Positions 24,917-32,083 of a stretch of DNA of 36,849 nucleotides are shown piece after piece (the first letter of the stretch is position 1; each line of letters starts with the position of its first letter). Made by a program: the position numbers and the translations under genes. Below the pieces are notes generated by a model that was given only the letters and a program-made list of their open reading frames with translations, made no database searches and was not told where the DNA came from. The DNA lies in NCBI GenBank assembly GCA_049325335.1, contig JBMOMC010000011.1, positions 1 to 36,849 of the forward strand, in the 5' to 3' direction. The DNA comes from Nitrospirota bacterium. Its GTDB lineage: Bacteria; Nitrospirota; Nitrospiria; 2-01-FULL-66-17.

Positions 24917-26779
24917 TCAGGCGCAGCGTGTGTGGGCGTCACCCGGACGATCAACCGGGGAGCGGAGTAGTCGCTGAAACGCGTCAAACGTCATGGGACG
25001 GTTGAAATAGTACCCTTGAAATTGCGAGCACCCAGAGGCTTGTAAACACTCCAACTCTTCGCGCGTTTCCACGCCCTCCGCGATGATGGACAGATCCAGC
25101 CCGCGTCCGAGCGCGATGATGGTTTCCACGATCGCCCGGTTGCCTTTGTGCGCGTGCAGGCCGCGCACAAAGGCTTGGTCGATTTTGAGCGTGGCGACCG
25201 GGAACCGGTTGATGTACGCCAGCGAGGAGTAGCCGGTCCCGAAATCATCGATGGAAAACGCGATGCCGAACGCTTGAAGGGCGCGCATCTTGTCCACCGC
25301 GTCCTCGGTATGTTTGATCAGCGTGCCTTCGGTTAATTCAATGCCGAGGTTGGCGGGATTGATCCCGGCATCTTGAGCCAGGCGCTGCACGTGCTCGACG
25401 AAATTGTCTTGACGGAGTTGAATCGCGCTCACGTTCACCGAGATTTTTTTGAAGTGCTCGGGGAGTCCGGCCTGCTCCAGGGTCCGGAGTTGTCGGCAGG
25501 CCGACCGCAGCATCCAATCTCCGACCTCAAGGATCATCCCGGTTTCCTCGGCGATGGGGATGAACAAGGCGGGCGACACCATGCCGCGACGCGGGTTGTT
25601 CCAGCGCAGGAGGATCTCGGCGCCGATCATGTCTCCGGTCGCGGCGTACTGGGGTTGATAGTAGAGTTCGAATTCGTTGTTGGCGGCCGCGGTCTGCAAC
25701 TCTTTTTCAAGGGCCAGACGGTCTTCGAGCTCCACCGACATCTTGCGGTCGTAGAACATCGCGTGGTTGCGGCCCTGAGATTTGGCCTGGTACATGGCCA
25801 TGTCCGCGTGGCGCAGGATTTCGTCCGCGGACGAGGCGCCGTCCGGGAAAACTTCGATGCCGATGCTGGGCGTCACCGACAAACTGTGCGAGTTGGCCTC
25901 CAACGGCCGCGCGAAGACGGCGCGGATCTTCTCGACCACGGTTTGCGCGTGGCGGGCCGCGGTGTTCGCGTTCTCGCCCAGTTCGGTCAGCAGCATGACG
26001 AACTCGTCACCGCCGAGACGGGCCACCGTATCTTCGCGCCGGATCAATCCGGTCAAGACCGAGGCCACCGCGGTGAGCAAGAGGTCGCCGACCGCGTGCC
26101 CGAGCGTGTCGTTGATGGTTTTGAACCGGTCAAGGTCCAGGAACAACGCCGCCCCGAAATGGCGGTGCCGTCGCGATCGCGCCAGTTCCTGGTCCAACCG
26201 CTGCATGAACAGGCGGCGGTTGGGCAGGCCGGTGAGATCATCGTGATGGAGTTGATACACTACGGTATCTTCGGCCTGTTTGCGGGCCACGGTGGCTCGC
26301 AGCAACTCTTCATGTTCGAAGGACGCGTGGCAACTGGTGGTCAGACGCGCGAGAATCGGCTTGAGCAACAAGAGCACGGATTCGTCGATCGCGCGGTGGA
26401 ACCGTCGGAACACCAGAACGCCGCAGTCCGGGAGTCGGAAAAAGTACATGAACTCGCCGTGGCGCTCGTCGCATCCCAGCAGGTGCGCGGACCGGTCTTG
26501 CTGACGACTCACCCAATGCTCGCACCGGGCTTCAGTGGCTCCGTCTCCCCCATGACGATCGGGCAGACTGAGGTAGTGGCGGAGCGCGCCCGAGCCCGGA
26601 GCGTGTAACGCGAGCCGCCCGGACTCGTCGTGGACCAAGAACACGTCAACGCCGGCGAGCCCGAGTCGGCGGATGCACACCGCGGCGAACTGCCGCAACA
26701 TGGGCTCCAGGCGAAGGTCGAGCCCCACCGCCATGCCGAGTTCGTGTTGGATCGAGATGAGTTGAAGGGTGTTTTCCAC
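24917..26779 (-). CDS. GGDEF/EAL bifunctional c-di-GMP protein
   Basis: DDLTGLPNR, RLGGDEF, EIL, DDFGTGYSS, AEGVET. Confidence 0.93.
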   Translation of the reverse strand: MENTLQLISIQHELGMAVGLDLRLEPMLRQFAAVCIRRLGLAGVDVFLVHDESGRLALHAPGSGALRHYLSLPDRHGGDGATEARCEHWVSRQQDRSAHLLGCDERHGEFMYFFRLPDCGVLVFRRFHRAIDESVLLLLKPILARLTTSCHASFEHEELLRATVARKQAEDTVVYQLHHDDLTGLPNRRLFMQRLDQELARSRRHRHFGAALFLDLDRFKTINDTLGHAVGDLLLTAVASVLTGLIRREDTVARLGGDEFVMLLTELGENANTAARHAQTVVEKIRAVFARPLEANSHSLSVTPSIGIEVFPDGASSADEILRHADMAMYQAKSQGRNHAMFYDRKMSVELEDRLALEKELQTAAANNEFELYYQPQYAATGDMIGAEILLRWNNPRRGMVSPALFIPIAEETGMILEVGDWMLRSACRQLRTLEQAGLPEHFKKISVNVSAIQLRQDNFVEHVQRLAQDAGINPANLGIELTEGTLIKHTEDAVDKMRALQAFGIAFSIDDFGTGYSSLAYINRFPVATLKIDQAFVRGLHAHKGNRAIVETIIALGRGLDLSIIAEGVETREELECLQASGCSQFQGYYFNRPMTFDAFQRLLRSPVDRPGDAHTRCA

Positions 26780-26800
26780 GCACGCCCCTGCCGTGATCCG

Positions 26801-27940
26801 CTAAAAGACGCCGATCACGGTGGACTTGTTGAGCAGATTGATGGGGCCGTTGTAGGTGTTGGCGATCTCGCCGAGAGTGAGGGCTCCGAATGCGTGGCGG
26901 AAGTCTCCAAGGCCGTGCTGGATCGCCTCGAGTTCGCGGTCAAACTCCAGATTCAGGAACAACACGCGGCTGATGCAGTCGAACACCAGGGCCGACGGCG
27001 CGCCGCGGGACCGACGCGCGTCGTAGGAGGCGCGGGCCTCGCTCGCGGCCGTGCCCGCGGAGTCCACCAGCCGGGCCGCCTGGCCCTTGAGGATGTAGAC
27101 CATCGCGTTTTCCGGCACCTCGCCCACGCACACCAGGGCATTGCCCTCGAGCCGGATCGGATCGCGCACCAACAGATCGCCGTCCAGGCGTTCGATTCCG
27201 AACGGGTATGTTTTGGCGATCGAGAAAAAATCGTGCTCGGCAAACCGCAACCCGGACGCGGCTTCCACGCGCGTTCGGTACACGTCGAACGCGGGCTGAT
27301 AGTTGAGGGTGTCCAGCACGTGGCCGCGCGATCCCGTGACCAGGTACGGTCCGTCGAGAGTCTCCCATCCGTGCTGCACGCCGCGCGACACGGGAAACGG
27401 CAGCCCGATCACCACCGCCGCGTCCTGGAGCAGGCCGTGGTTGGTGAAGAGGCAGGGTTTTTGAACAAAGCTGAGTGAGCCGGCGCCGCACCCCACGATA
27501 TCGCGTCCCGGGCCGATCAGACTGTAGAGGCTTTCCACGAATCGCTCGATGTGTTTGGCCAACCCGTCCACCAGGGTAATCAGACTCGCGGCCCCGGTCA
27601 TCGCCGCGCACCCGTGTCGTACCGCGGCGTCCATGTCCTCGCCGTGCGTCGAGAGATCGTTCAACACCGCCACCGTCGCGCGCTCGCCCAATCCCACCAC
27701 GAGCGTGCCGTGATCCAGCCGCCGGCCTTGGTGAATAATGCTCGGAAACGTGCCGCCGAACACCGGGATCGGCAGGGCGGTCAGCACCGGGTCCACGCGC
27801 GCGGGCGTCCACGAATCCGCGTCGCACCCCATGACCAGGACGCTGCGCGCGCCATGTTTCATCACCGCGTCCAAACACCGCTGGAGTTCGTAGGTCGCCG
27901 AATCGTGAGCAAATTCAACGCTGGTTGTCGTCTGGATCAT
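26801..27940 (-). CDS. FIST domain protein (NosP-like)
   Basis: FGGTFP, LVDG, GCGAG, HGW, LVRDP, FDCISR, GALTLGEIA, NKS. ATG at 27940 follows GGAGG. Confidence 0.9.
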   Translation of the reverse strand: MIQTTTSVEFAHDSATYELQRCLDAVMKHGARSVLVMGCDADSWTPARVDPVLTALPIPVFGGTFPSIIHQGRRLDHGTLVVGLGERATVAVLNDLSTHGEDMDAAVRHGCAAMTGAASLITLVDGLAKHIERFVESLYSLIGPGRDIVGCGAGSLSFVQKPCLFTNHGLLQDAAVVIGLPFPVSRGVQHGWETLDGPYLVTGSRGHVLDTLNYQPAFDVYRTRVEAASGLRFAEHDFFSIAKTYPFGIERLDGDLLVRDPIRLEGNALVCVGEVPENAMVYILKGQAARLVDSAGTAASEARASYDARRSRGAPSALVFDCISRVLFLNLEFDRELEAIQHGLGDFRHAFGALTLGEIANTYNGPINLLNKSTVIGVF

Positions 27941-27988
27941 ATCGACCTCCAAGATCAGCCCACACCGCGCGCAGGGGAGCCCGGGTAC

Positions 27989-29029: not shown

Positions 29030-29821
29030 ACGGTGCGGCGTGACCTGTTGGACGGCGAGCGCCTCGCGGAACGACATGTGGATGTACCAAAAACCTTTCC
29101 GATATCGGTTAAATTCGAAGTTTGATTTGTCGATGGTTTTCATGGCGGGTTGAGTGGGGGCAAAAACAACTGAATATGGCCTCTTCAGAAACAGTTGTTT
29201 CTGAAACGCACGTCGTGGTAGCAAAAGTCTATATATTTCAGTGGTTCTAGTGGCCTACTTCTGTAAGGGTTGTTGAGACGTCAGAGTCCTGACACCCCTT
29301 ATGGCTTCGTGTCGCTTCCATCCAGGAAAGCGACACCTCAACCTACCAGCTTCGAAGCGTGTGGGTTCGCGAAAAGCCGGTTTGTAACACGGCGCTCCTT
29401 CTCCGTGCCGGCGGCGCAGGTTGCTCGATGGAGCCCCCCATATCGTGACAGATGCCGTGATCTGGGTCGCGGTCGTCCGCTAGGGTAAGGCCTTCCATGG
29501 TCTCCGCCGCGGTACCCTTGACTTCGCTTCAGTGGTTGTCTTAAAGTTCCAGCGTGTAACCTCGCCTATCTATCCTTTTTTCAGTTTCTTAGTGAACGAA
29601 GGCCTCCCCGCGGGACGCGTTTCATAACACTGCAAGTCGTATTTGCCGGCACCATGGAGAAGGACTCCATAGAATCGAGGCCGCACGCCAGAGTAAACGT
29701 GTCCCCGCACGGCGGTTCTCATCTGCCGCGCTCTCCCCCGTCGCACCACCCCGCATTGCGGGTCTGATGGATGGTTCGGGAAGCCCCAAGAACATGGCAT
29801 AGCATAAAAGGAGGGTGTGTC

Positions 29822-32083
29822 ATGACCAGGCATCGTCCCAATCACGACCGTCCGGACACCGAAGCCGTTTCCTGGATGGCGATGGTCGTGCTCGGATCGC
29901 TCGTACTGGCCGCGGTGCTCGTCACGGCTGGTGTGATCGCGCTGCCCGCAATGGCCCCCTCCAACGCAGGGGGCGAAGCAGAAGAGCTCGTGTCCCCAGG
30001 CTTCGTGGGAAATCAATGGGTGATGACAACAAAGACCGCTCTGCTGGACGCGCTCGTTCAAGAAGACATCGGGACCCGTATCCTGGCCGTGGAGCGGTAT
30101 TACTCCGACCGACTGAGCCAACTCGCCCAGCGGTGGAGCCAGGTCAGTAACGACACGCGTAGTTTCGCCGAGGGCCGCAACGCCCGCCTGCAAGAAGCGC
30201 TTGGGGTCTCGATCGCTGCGACCGCCCAGCGCCTATACATTGAACGATGGGCGCTCGACACCGCTCTCGCCGACGCCCGCGCCACTGTGCGCGCCATCCT
30301 CAGCGGTGGCTGGTTGCAGGAGCGCGTGGGCGCCGCGATCGTCCAAACTGCCGCGGAGGTGCCTCCGGCTGATCCGCGCTTTCTGCCGAGGGTCGAGGCG
30401 CGGGTCACGGGGTTGTCCACGATGGAGTCCGGTGTTGCGAATCGTGCCGCGGCAGAAATCGGCGCGTTGAACGCCCGCCTGGCGCGGTTCCCCCACGAGG
30501 GGATCATCCGCCTGGCCGACGCGGTAGCCGACGGCCACCGCGTGGCGCGCTTCTATGATGCGTCCGTGGAGGCGCAGACCGCCCGCATCATGGGCGGGAT
30601 CATAAACGAGATAGCTCAAGCACGGAGCGTCGGCGATTACCTCCATCTCGCCGAGGCGGCCAACGCCGCCGCCCGGCCTTCCTGGAAGGGGGGAGGATTT
30701 CTGGAGTTCGGCGCTGCGGCATTGCTCGGGGCCATCGCGATGATGGCGTGGGTTGCCTTCTCGACCCGAATGGATTTCCGCCGTGCGTTTCCGCGAGTCG
30801 TCAAGACGCCCTCCGCTAGACAATCGGCCCCCGCTCCGAGATGGAAAGGGAGGGGCGTTCGGCCCTACGCCACCACGTTGTCCATCTGGCCTCGCGAGGT
30901 GAGCTTCGGGCTCCATTGCACGCGGGACATCGGGGTCCTGGCCGCTCGCGGGCATGTCAGGCACGCGACCATCGTGACGGATCAAGGCGTCGCCCAGAAG
31001 GGACTTGTGGATCCCGTGACGGCCTCACTTGCCGAGGCCGGGGTGACGTGCGATGTCATGGATCAGGCCTCGCGCGAAGTCCCCCATACCCAGATCGCCA
31101 AGATCGCCGACTGGTGCAAGGAGGCCGGGACAGATGTGCTCATCGCGGTCGGGGGCGGGAGCGTGATCGACACCGCGAAGGCAGTCGGCATTATCCTCAC
31201 CAACGGCGGCTCGATCCTGGACTCCGAGGGGATCGAGCGCGTGGGTCGTCCGATCACGCCGTTCTACGCGGTGCCCACGACGGCGGGCAGCGGGGCCGAA
31301 ACCAGCCCATTTTGCTATGTGCGGGATGAGACGCGGTCACGAAAGATTGCGATTTTTAGCCGCCACCTGATTCCAGAGCGGATCGTCATCGATCCACTGA
31401 TGACCCGCTCGATGCCGCCGGAATTGACCGCGAGCACCGGGATGGACGCCCTGGCGAACGCCATTGAGGCGTATTTTTCTACGTGGGCAAACCCCTTGAG
31501 CGACACGCTCGCACTGGATGCGATGCGGCTGATCTCGGAGAACCTCCGTGCCGTCGTGGCCCACGGTAATAACCTGAGCGGACGCCAGCAGATGGCGCTT
31601 GCGGCCTTCGAGGCTGGACAAGCCTCCGTCAACACGAGGAGTGGCCCGGTGCATGCTCTCGGGCACTCACTGTCTGAGCTGCTGGATATTCCAGAGCGGG
31701 TCGGCAACGCTATCCTGCTCCCGCACATCATGAAGGCGTACCTGTATGCCGACGTACGCCGCATGGCCAAGGTGGCCGAGGCCCTGGGCGAATCCATGGC
31801 CGGCCTGAGCGAGCGCGCAGCCGCCCAACGCGCGATAGATGCTGTGATGTTGCTCATGATGGATGTGGGGCTTCCCATCACGTTGGAGAAAATAGGCGTG
31901 GACAGGAACGCGGTTTCAGCCTTGAGCGAGCAGGCCTTGCAGGATCCCATCCTGCGCAGCAACCCGGGGGCGCTCACCCGGGAGGACATCGAAGCGATCT
32001 ACGAGGACGCGTTCATCGAATATGCGGAGATGGAAATGAACTCCGCGACGGTTCAAGGACGACCCCGCGCCAGGATTCACTAA
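29822..32083 (+). CDS. Membrane-anchored fusion: TM-helical domain-TM + iron-containing alcohol dehydrogenase-like domain
   Basis: C-terminal GGGSVID.AK, PTTAGSGAE, GMDAL, VHALGH; two hydrophobic helices in the N-terminal half; RBS AAGGAGG before ATG 29822. Confidence 0.8.
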   Translation: MTRHRPNHDRPDTEAVSWMAMVVLGSLVLAAVLVTAGVIALPAMAPSNAGGEAEELVSPGFVGNQWVMTTKTALLDALVQEDIGTRILAVERYYSDRLSQLAQRWSQVSNDTRSFAEGRNARLQEALGVSIAATAQRLYIERWALDTALADARATVRAILSGGWLQERVGAAIVQTAAEVPPADPRFLPRVEARVTGLSTMESGVANRAAAEIGALNARLARFPHEGIIRLADAVADGHRVARFYDASVEAQTARIMGGIINEIAQARSVGDYLHLAEAANAAARPSWKGGGFLEFGAAALLGAIAMMAWVAFSTRMDFRRAFPRVVKTPSARQSAPAPRWKGRGVRPYATTLSIWPREVSFGLHCTRDIGVLAARGHVRHATIVTDQGVAQKGLVDPVTASLAEAGVTCDVMDQASREVPHTQIAKIADWCKEAGTDVLIAVGGGSVIDTAKAVGIILTNGGSILDSEGIERVGRPITPFYAVPTTAGSGAETSPFCYVRDETRSRKIAIFSRHLIPERIVIDPLMTRSMPPELTASTGMDALANAIEAYFSTWANPLSDTLALDAMRLISENLRAVVAHGNNLSGRQQMALAAFEAGQASVNTRSGPVHALGHSLSELLDIPERVGNAILLPHIMKAYLYADVRRMAKVAEALGESMAGLSERAAAQRAIDAVMLLMMDVGLPITLEKIGVDRNAVSALSEQALQDPILRSNPGALTREDIEAIYEDAFIEYAEMEMNSATVQGRPRARIH

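Follow-up and report, generated by a model that had tools for sequence, protein, structure and literature searches.

What does the fold of an iron-dependent alcohol dehydrogenase (Fe-ADH) do when it is joined to a membrane module and two of its four iron ligands have been exchanged? The question is raised by the gene at 29822..32083 (+) in a stretch of 36,849 nucleotides from a Nitrospirota bacterium (GenBank assembly GCA_049325335.1, contig JBMOMC010000011.1, positions 1 to 36,849), which is called the window here over its full length. Open reading frame (ORF), Pfam, homologue and contig comparisons all describe one unbroken frame of 753 amino acids in which a stalk, a membrane segment and an Fe-ADH fold follow one another. 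The gene is confirmed as real and conserved and is no artefact. As a tentative first choice among the explanations of its function, the ADH fold is read here as an iron-free regulatory module that binds nicotinamide adenine dinucleotide (NAD(H)) and controls the periplasmic stalk from inside the cell.

A conserved gene fusion

The fusion was first proposed in a sequence-only reading of the window, which named a lost stop codon or an assembly error, with the junction at 30770-30880 as the place to check, as the ways in which it might be spurious. The second is excluded, since the stretch matches its likely source contig from end to end with 0 differences and an independent groundwater contig from another study (X3) carries 29820-32013 in a single piece, with 140 substitutions and 0 gaps, and so spans the junction. 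The stalk-ADH junction is also bridged by contigs of relatives from RNA libraries (runs X5, X6 and X8), which record the presence of relatives' sequence in metatranscriptomes and not transcription level or strand. A search with residues 1-345, restricted to proteins of 414-1318 amino acids, returned 28 other proteins of 541-753 amino acids (E 1e-41 to 1e-189), two of which are labelled Nitrospirota by their source. All 28 carry Fe-ADH Pfam domains, with identity in the N-terminal module down to 47%, and the proposed fusion is thereby matched by full-length, two-module homologues. The start is placed at the ATG at 29822, which follows a strong Shine-Dalgarno sequence, AAGGAGG at 29808..29814 (+), whose duplex energy is -12.1 kcal/mol; the ATG at 29771 has a value of -3.7.

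The family is small and bound to one lineage. Among 41 related genomes, 12 have the N-terminal module; among 401 sampled across the phylum it was found in 6, every one of them in the window's class. For the ADH-like clade the count is 9 of 401, again in this class. Searched with a profile, 1.84 billion representatives yielded 34 matches (19 below 1e-30); among the 30 of these that were scanned, the only Pfam families over cut-off in true family members are those of Fe-ADH. Scans of sequence collections with the ADH alignment gave, among the matches listed, one clade member in 159 loci, the rest being ordinary Fe-ADHs that served as outgroup. One seemingly stand-alone protein (P0079) belongs to a 90% cluster that contains a fused member of 712 amino acids, and an apparent split in genome G021 coincides with a run of N between duplicated flanks, so that this copy was taken to be fused. 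No description of a stalk-Fe-ADH fusion was found in the literature searched, which covered few subscription journals and excluded supplements.

The window's own genome (G000; other G numbers denote related or phylum-wide genomes used for comparison) holds a second fusion on contig C7, whose stalk is 45% and whose ADH part is 67% identical to that of the window copy. This paralogue (G000:C7:245344-247320; L001:9207-11360) has the ligand quartet D-N-H-Q and keeps a ribosome site and ATG at the start of its ADH part; neighbours identified by eye are a divergently oriented solute:sodium symporter-like gene and, downstream, a GAF-GGDEF-like gene and glnB/amtB/nitrite-reductase-like genes. An internally deleted copy in another genome (G002:C11:89053-89511 in L017/L021, with P0062 and P0066), seen in two records, lacks nearly the whole stalk and leaves the ADH frame soon after its start, and is likely a pseudogene or mini-form.

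Metal and nucleotide sites of the ADH fold

The ADH part at 30878..32014 (+) has the two-domain fold of group III ADHs, with the Pfam Fe-ADH family at residues 357-525 and ADH_Fe_C at 536-731 (PF00465 and PF25137, 142 and 161 bits against cut-offs of 31.3 and 27). The top Foldseek matches are MDH, DhaT, ADH2 and FucO. The window protein shares both fold and sequence (E 6e-72 to 2e-58; Foldseek identity 31-35%) with group III ADHs of the lactaldehyde:propanediol oxidoreductase type, namely Bacillus methanolicus MDH (8zwd/8zrl), DhaT (3bfj), Zymomonas ADH2 (3owo) and E. coli FucO, and has in common with them the NAD-type Asp, GGGS, PTT, a Lys, the metal-site Asp with one His, and the equivalent of FucO His267. 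It differs from them in carrying Asn and Glu/Gln in place of His200 and His277, Arg in place of the Gly after site 4, and EVP in place of the PNP loop that is conserved in the family; its fold also stands behind a membrane module of about 350 amino acids and its clade on a long stem.

The nucleotide site is kept. The coenzyme site of group III is defined by GGGS and an NAD-specifying Asp (PMC5125639), and alignment to homologues in the PDB finds both in the window copy, whose site comprises D387, GGGS 444-447, D450, K453, PTT 485-487 and K508. Across the clade, D387 is present in 49 of 51 filled rows and GGGS is intact in 54 of 55 sequences, while D450, K453 and T486 occur in all 55.

The metal site has changed. 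FucO binds iron through Asp196, His200, His263 and His277 (PMC10087678), and alignments to 8zwd, 8zrl, 3bfj and 3owo equate these with D542, N546, H611 and E625. The motifs picked out by the sequence-only reading, DALANAIE (542), PERVGNA (624), GGGS (444) and PTTAG (485), are all in place, and its claim of substituted metal ligands holds for sites 2 and 4; it needs amending in that the site has four ligands, of which Asp542 and His611 (in VHALGH) are retained. At sites 1 and 2 (31445..31459, +) the kept Asp542, which is D, E or N in the clade, is followed by Asn546, which replaces His in 55 of 55 sequences. At site 3 (31652..31666, +) His611 is kept in 54 of 55 and His615, the equivalent of FucO His267, in 53 of 55. 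At site 4 (31694..31699, +) Glu625 stands in place of His (E in 42 and Q in 13 of the 55) and is followed by Arg626 for Gly in 54 of 55.

These counts come from 257 distinct ADH domains that remained once fragments of fewer than 250 profile positions had been dropped. Of these, 55 form one clade (Shimodaira-Hasegawa-like approximate likelihood ratio test 100) on a stem of 0.87-0.98 changes per site, and 202 form the outgroup. The D-H-H-H quartet is present in 200 of the 202 outgroup sequences against none in the clade, where DNHE (36), DNHQ (8), ENHE (5), ENHQ (4), DNQQ (1) and NNHE (1) are found. Site 1 drifts among D (45), E (9) and N (1), and the Glu and Gln branches at site 4 are interleaved on the tree; if the members had a metal site in common, both positions would be expected to be fixed. 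The single DNQQ protein (P0087) has lost all three His ligands. The ADH domain is not decaying, given a ratio of non-synonymous to synonymous substitution rates (dN/dS) of 0.15-0.30 in this part (10 pairs, 5 genomic copies). The pattern points to loss of iron catalysis with retained NAD(H) binding, and the earlier suggestion of a pseudo-enzyme or an altered-metal enzyme is likely on the strength of the ligand quartets and the kept nucleotide site.

Maleylacetate reductases, which are soluble, resemble the window protein in having an altered metal site with the His267-equivalent kept. They are distant relatives (E 1e-14 to 1e-19) and change site 1 (Asp to Asn or Arg), whereas the window protein changes sites 2 and 4 and keeps Asp542. 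These enzymes are metal-free, one lost ligand is proposed as the reason, and the His267-equivalent is proposed as catalytic (PMC5125639). Since two ligands are changed here where one is proposed to suffice there, iron loss is favoured; the precedent supports metal loss in the window protein and equally the rival idea of metal-free catalysis.

Stalk, membrane segments and junction

Hydropathy and composition bear out the earlier description of a transmembrane segment, an Ala-rich region and a second transmembrane segment. Hydrophobicity over 19-residue windows exceeds 1.6 at two places only, within residues 13-47 and within 291-315, and Ala makes up 19% of residues 60-290 against 14% of the ADH part. 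The first hydrophobic helix (about residues 17-45; 29870..29956, +) is a membrane anchor or a cleavable signal peptide, its end in homologues having, by eye, an AxA-like site in several and the look of an uncleaved anchor in others. The second (residues 291-315; 30692..30766, +) opens in the stalk alignment with a conserved GF.E(F/Y)G. Behind it lies a basic, poorly conserved linker (30767..30877, +): residues 316-350 hold 10 K/R against 1 D/E, and the 25 residues behind the first helix hold no K/R. Under the positive-inside rule the basic linker would put the ADH fold in the cytoplasm, with the N terminus inside and residues of about 46-290 in the periplasm. The pair of hydrophobic helices, the second of them backed by basic residues on its inner side, agrees with an inner-membrane protein that has a periplasmic loop.

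The repeat LQE.(L/V)G..I noted earlier has exactly two copies, at residues 123 and 165, and a degenerate third version, VQEDIGTRI, stands at 79. As QExxGxxI the motif covers residues 79-87, 123-131 and 165-173 (30056..30340, +), at spacings of 44 and 42 residues. Sixteen stalks align nearly without gaps at 24-63% identity to the window copy, with the Gln, Gly and Ile columns of the motif invariant or nearly so, and stalk dN/dS is 0.21-0.51. Proteins with weak QExLG-like repeats (P0063, P0065, P0068 and P0071) were excluded from the family. Two of them, P0068 and P0071, are small membrane proteins with short QExLG repeats and possibly belong to a wider repeat family, P0068 having a GG(L/F)xEFG that opens its last membrane helix and resembles the family's motif; no such small membrane protein was found in G000.

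The predicted stalk (about residues 67-290; 30020..30691, +) is all-helical in its AlphaFold2 (AF2) model, at a mean predicted local distance difference test score (pLDDT) of 83, and belongs to no known family. Helix lengths would fit a long antiparallel coiled-coil hairpin of about 130-140 Å. Fold searches returned generic long coiled coils only. The best match was a chemoreceptor hairpin (Z 11.1, root-mean-square deviation (rmsd) 9.9, where the bar for helical proteins is about Z 13), and the others, cohesin, SMC and EnvC, all fall within the chance range for such proteins. Long antiparallel coiled coils (3g67/2ch7, SMC arms, EnvC 8tzl, Cg1735, SteB) therefore resemble the predicted stalk in general shape, but at an rmsd of about 10 Å, mostly below 15% identity and with chance-range scores they show no kinship. 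The stalk had no Pfam match over cut-off, no sequence match in the PDB and no Atlas cluster that names it, and none of the sensor-type Pfam families 4HB_MCP, PilJ, CHASE3, TorS and DAHL was found among the 16 stalks at E up to 1. Complex prediction with two stalk copies gave an interface score (ipSAE) of 0.00, which was given no weight for or against pairing.

Stalks also occur alone. Genes for proteins of about 300 amino acids with short cytoplasmic tails are present in G007 (two copies), G039, G033 and G009, genomes in which PF00465 has no match over cut-off (completeness 98% for G007 and 97% for G009). The one in G033 occupies the same syntenic place, between the same two neighbours, as the fused copies of G022 and G028. 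On a quick tree of 39 stalks, from which the partial P0054-P0058 and near-duplicate fusions were left out, the distribution of fused and solitary states requires 6 changes, 4 of them forced by starred branches. From these genomes, this synteny and these changes it follows that the ADH part is an optional appendage of the stalk. Several stalk-only proteins (L007, L016, P0042, P0049, P0053, P0058) end in one or more basic residues and AA, presumably like a ClpXP/ssrA-type degron. The tail W(K/R)KEAA of L007 and L016 resembles the WKREVxM junction of fused copies and stops at the would-be ADH start.

The junction itself may preserve a trace of its origin. Five of 14 genomic copies, the C7 paralogue among them, have a Shine-Dalgarno-like site (-7.3 to -11.5 kcal/mol) followed by an in-frame ATG that precedes the conserved W of SWP by exactly nine codons. 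Energies of -7 and of -9 are attained by 8.5% and 2.6%, respectively, of the 5247 internal ATGs of G000. The junction pattern K/R-E-V/I-x(1-2)-M recurs in four more proteins (P0046, P0054, P0056 and P0090), the remaining linker being unconserved, and gene calls of about 405 amino acids that comprise the ADH part only exist (P0082, P0083, P0087). A start-site scan finds no start codon at the ADH junction of the window copy. A ribosome site and ATG at a fixed place suggest that the fusion arose from two genes, and the internal start is possibly still used in some lineages.

Possible functions and genomic setting

If the ADH fold is an iron-free regulator, binding of NAD+ or NADH would open or close its two lobes, and this movement would alter the packing of the paired membrane helices and stalks. 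Fe-ADH family members form dimers, and here the contact would be made by the ADH fold's conserved N-terminal strand. In this way redox control would be imposed on an envelope protein that occurs bare in other lineages, and lineages with the internal ribosome site would also make a free ADH-like subunit that could pair with the tethered one. Control from inside outwards is favoured because the stalk works in other genomes with no cytoplasmic domain and matches no sensor fold above the search bars. The fully specified form of the proposal, a new inside-out redox switch in which an iron-free NAD+/NADH sensor drives, across the inner membrane, a new-family stalk that spans the periplasm and, in several lineages, an internal-start subunit tunes the tethered sensor by heterodimerisation, is unlikely to be right in every part.

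Several observations weigh against the regulatory reading. Asn546 never varies in the clade, His611 and His615 hardly do, and beside the old site Arg626 has appeared as a further residue that is all but fixed; together they look like a rebuilt functional pocket such as a catalyst or a ligand site needs. His615 corresponds to the proposed catalytic residue of metal-free maleylacetate reductase, and in the variants with Glu the D/N/H/E set could still coordinate Mn, Mg or Fe. The full-length AF2 model is poor (pLDDT 59.8, with residues 445-518 below 50) and gives no basis for pocket geometry. Stalk-only proteins from metagenomes may have a separate ADH-like gene downstream. The direction of signalling is read solely from gene distribution. 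Finally, Glu625 is likely the counterpart of a His required by YiaY, the regulatory Fe-ADH discussed below, so that the mechanism of ErcA does not carry over unchanged.

Much of this is shared with the next explanation, which is rather unlikely and holds that the protein is an active, membrane-tethered NAD(H) oxidoreductase, either metal-free or using another metal through Asp/Asn/His/Glu. His615 would serve as acid, Arg626 and Asn546 would hold an anionic or carbonyl substrate, and the stalk would be an anchor, a scaffold or a coupling rod. The conserved residues just listed, the full NAD pocket and purifying selection all speak for such an enzyme, as does the metal-free catalysis described for this fold (PMC5125639). 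Apart from the two fusions, moreover, G000 has no PF00465 match over cut-off, and an internal start would yield a soluble protein of ordinary size, like the ADH-only calls of about 405 amino acids. An enzyme fits less well with the E/Q drift at site 4, the D/E/N drift at site 1 and a DNQQ member devoid of all three His ligands. Nor does it sit easily with a PNP loop turned into EVP, with the lack of a conserved metabolic operon, or with a domain that seems to have been lost or gained repeatedly while the stalk stayed.

An outside-in receptor, in which the periplasmic part senses and the ADH fold is a cytoplasmic output that binds a partner as ErcA/YiaY do with a kinase, is improbable. The layout is of receptor type, with two hydrophobic segments flanking a periplasmic domain and a cytoplasmic domain behind, and an Atlas feature search of the stalk lists the periplasmic sensor clusters DAHL, PilJ, 4HB_MCP, CHASE3 and TorS at 0.78-0.81. 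ErcA as the best NCBIfam model and the quick tree described below also favour it. These scores lie below the bar of 0.9, however, and shuffled proteins reach 0.8 one third of the time; the fold matches of the stalk are to generic coiled coils, stalk-only forms have no output domain, and the open placement in a second tree and the negative search for an ErcS-type partner, both given below, also count against it. Of the earlier proposal of a receptor with an ADH output, the receptor part is thus weak, there being no match to a sensor family or fold above the search bars and the stalk standing alone in genomes with no Fe-ADH over cut-off, whereas its option of a redox sensor fits better.

The likeness to ErcA/YiaY (NF041833; partner kinase ErcS/YiaZ) deserves separate consideration, since it provides a precedent for Fe-ADH folds in signalling. 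According to two reports, ErcA/YiaY is an Fe-ADH in complex with a hybrid kinase, and YiaY signalling requires His281 (PMC12551699, PMC12997753). Among NCBIfam models ErcA scores highest, both with the window protein (333 bits) and with the three other clade proteins scanned (363-378 bits), in each case under its cut-off of 550. A quick tree places the clade as sister to the ErcA group at 87, but a second tree leaves the placement open. The likeness lies in this best model, in the precedent of an Fe-ADH fold that signals at the membrane and, tentatively, in neighbouring branches on the trees. True ErcA members occur in other classes of the phylum, keep D-H-H-H and mostly abut a downstream signalling gene with a common N-terminal peptide; the window protein has neither quartet nor adjacent peptide-bearing gene. 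A profile of 21 such peptides found no ErcS-type peptide among the ORFs of G000 (best E 1.6), and no kinase gene overlaps the fusion, whose neighbours encode an NmrA-like protein, a small ORF and an RF-1-domain protein. The site-4 His of ErcA-group members is residue 280-282, and His281 of YiaY likely corresponds to Glu625. The window protein is accordingly not a member of ErcA and may be called ErcA-like at most loosely, as an ADH fold in signalling.

ErcA-type Fe-ADH genes followed by a kinase-like gene, once apparently HD-GYP-like, were seen at L221-L237, L108, L076 and, in Actinomycetota, L043-L100. Such pairs span Nitrospirota, Verrucomicrobiota, Chlorobiota and Actinomycetota, a broader range than PMC12551699 gives for close yiaYZ homologues, namely 20 Pseudomonad genomes. 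The N-terminal peptide of the ErcA-adjacent genes is a candidate ErcA-docking site. At L272 / L227 (G199:C211) an Fe-ADH with intact D-H-H-H opens a frame of at least 849 amino acids, possibly another fusion.

It is hardly credible that an ordinary Fe-dependent ADH was joined to an upstream gene by recent stop-codon loss or misassembly: the ribosome site with its in-frame ATG where the ADH part begins in 5 of 14 copies suggests at most an ancient two-gene origin in some lineages, the artefact half of the idea is refuted by the 28 homologues and the independent contig, and fusions in several families of the class, a junction bridged by independent DNA and RNA contigs, and replacement of two of four iron ligands in all 55 sequences speak against the rest, including the lost stop codon of the sequence-only reading as a recent lesion.

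The upstream region offers a lead on how the family is expressed. A sigma-70-like promoter, TTGACT-18-TAAAGT at 29518..29547 (+), would give a leader of about 270 nucleotides. Of 15 upstream regions from the family, 12 have a TTGAC box 250-375 nucleotides ahead of the start; among 866 other G000 genes, 4 have one at 240-340 nucleotides. A weak, partly conserved leader hairpin with a purine-rich, mostly GGA loop (29641..29680, +) was found by alignment and covariation; 82% of its cells are paired, its covariation score is reached by 12 of 500 shuffles, the window copy departs from the consensus stem, and the whole leader folds no better than shuffles (z -0.26). Rfam gave no gathering-level match around the gene or in 11 related loci, and no Rex, CRP/FNR or sigma-54 pattern was found upstream. 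With csrA present in G000, expression of the family may be under post-transcriptional control, by CsrA or translational. The long leader is conserved over 29518-29821 of the window and upstream of 11 homologues, and in several genomes the hairpin precedes the start codon of an upstream ORF or of an in-frame extension. Across the 17 loci compared no operon is conserved; the majority of copies appear monocistronic, each having a promoter-like site of its own.

The idea of an oxygen-proof ADH was dropped, as host physiology gave no functional clue: G000, at 99% completeness, has no match to COX1, the heme-copper oxidase subunit I (PF00115), nor to Nitr_red_alph_N, and has three molybdopterin enzymes. 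The genome also has several multiheme cytochrome ORFs, with up to 24 CxxCH motifs on C43. Elsewhere in the window, at 24917-27952 (-), a FIST-domain gene lies directly upstream of a GGDEF-EAL gene, presumably a NosP-like sensor arrangement.

Group III ADHs are known as soluble enzymes with a near-fixed Asp-His-His-His site, and even the regulatory ErcA/YiaY still need the metal-site His and act beside a kinase. In the present clade the fold has a remodelled site and has become part of a membrane protein, which makes the clade a natural test of what this fold can do without iron, whether as a nucleotide sensor or in new chemistry. The source annotation, 'iron-containing alcohol dehydrogenase', would wrongly imply alcohol metabolism in metabolic reconstructions. 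The stalk defines a new periplasmic domain family in little-studied Nitrospirota of groundwater and sediment.

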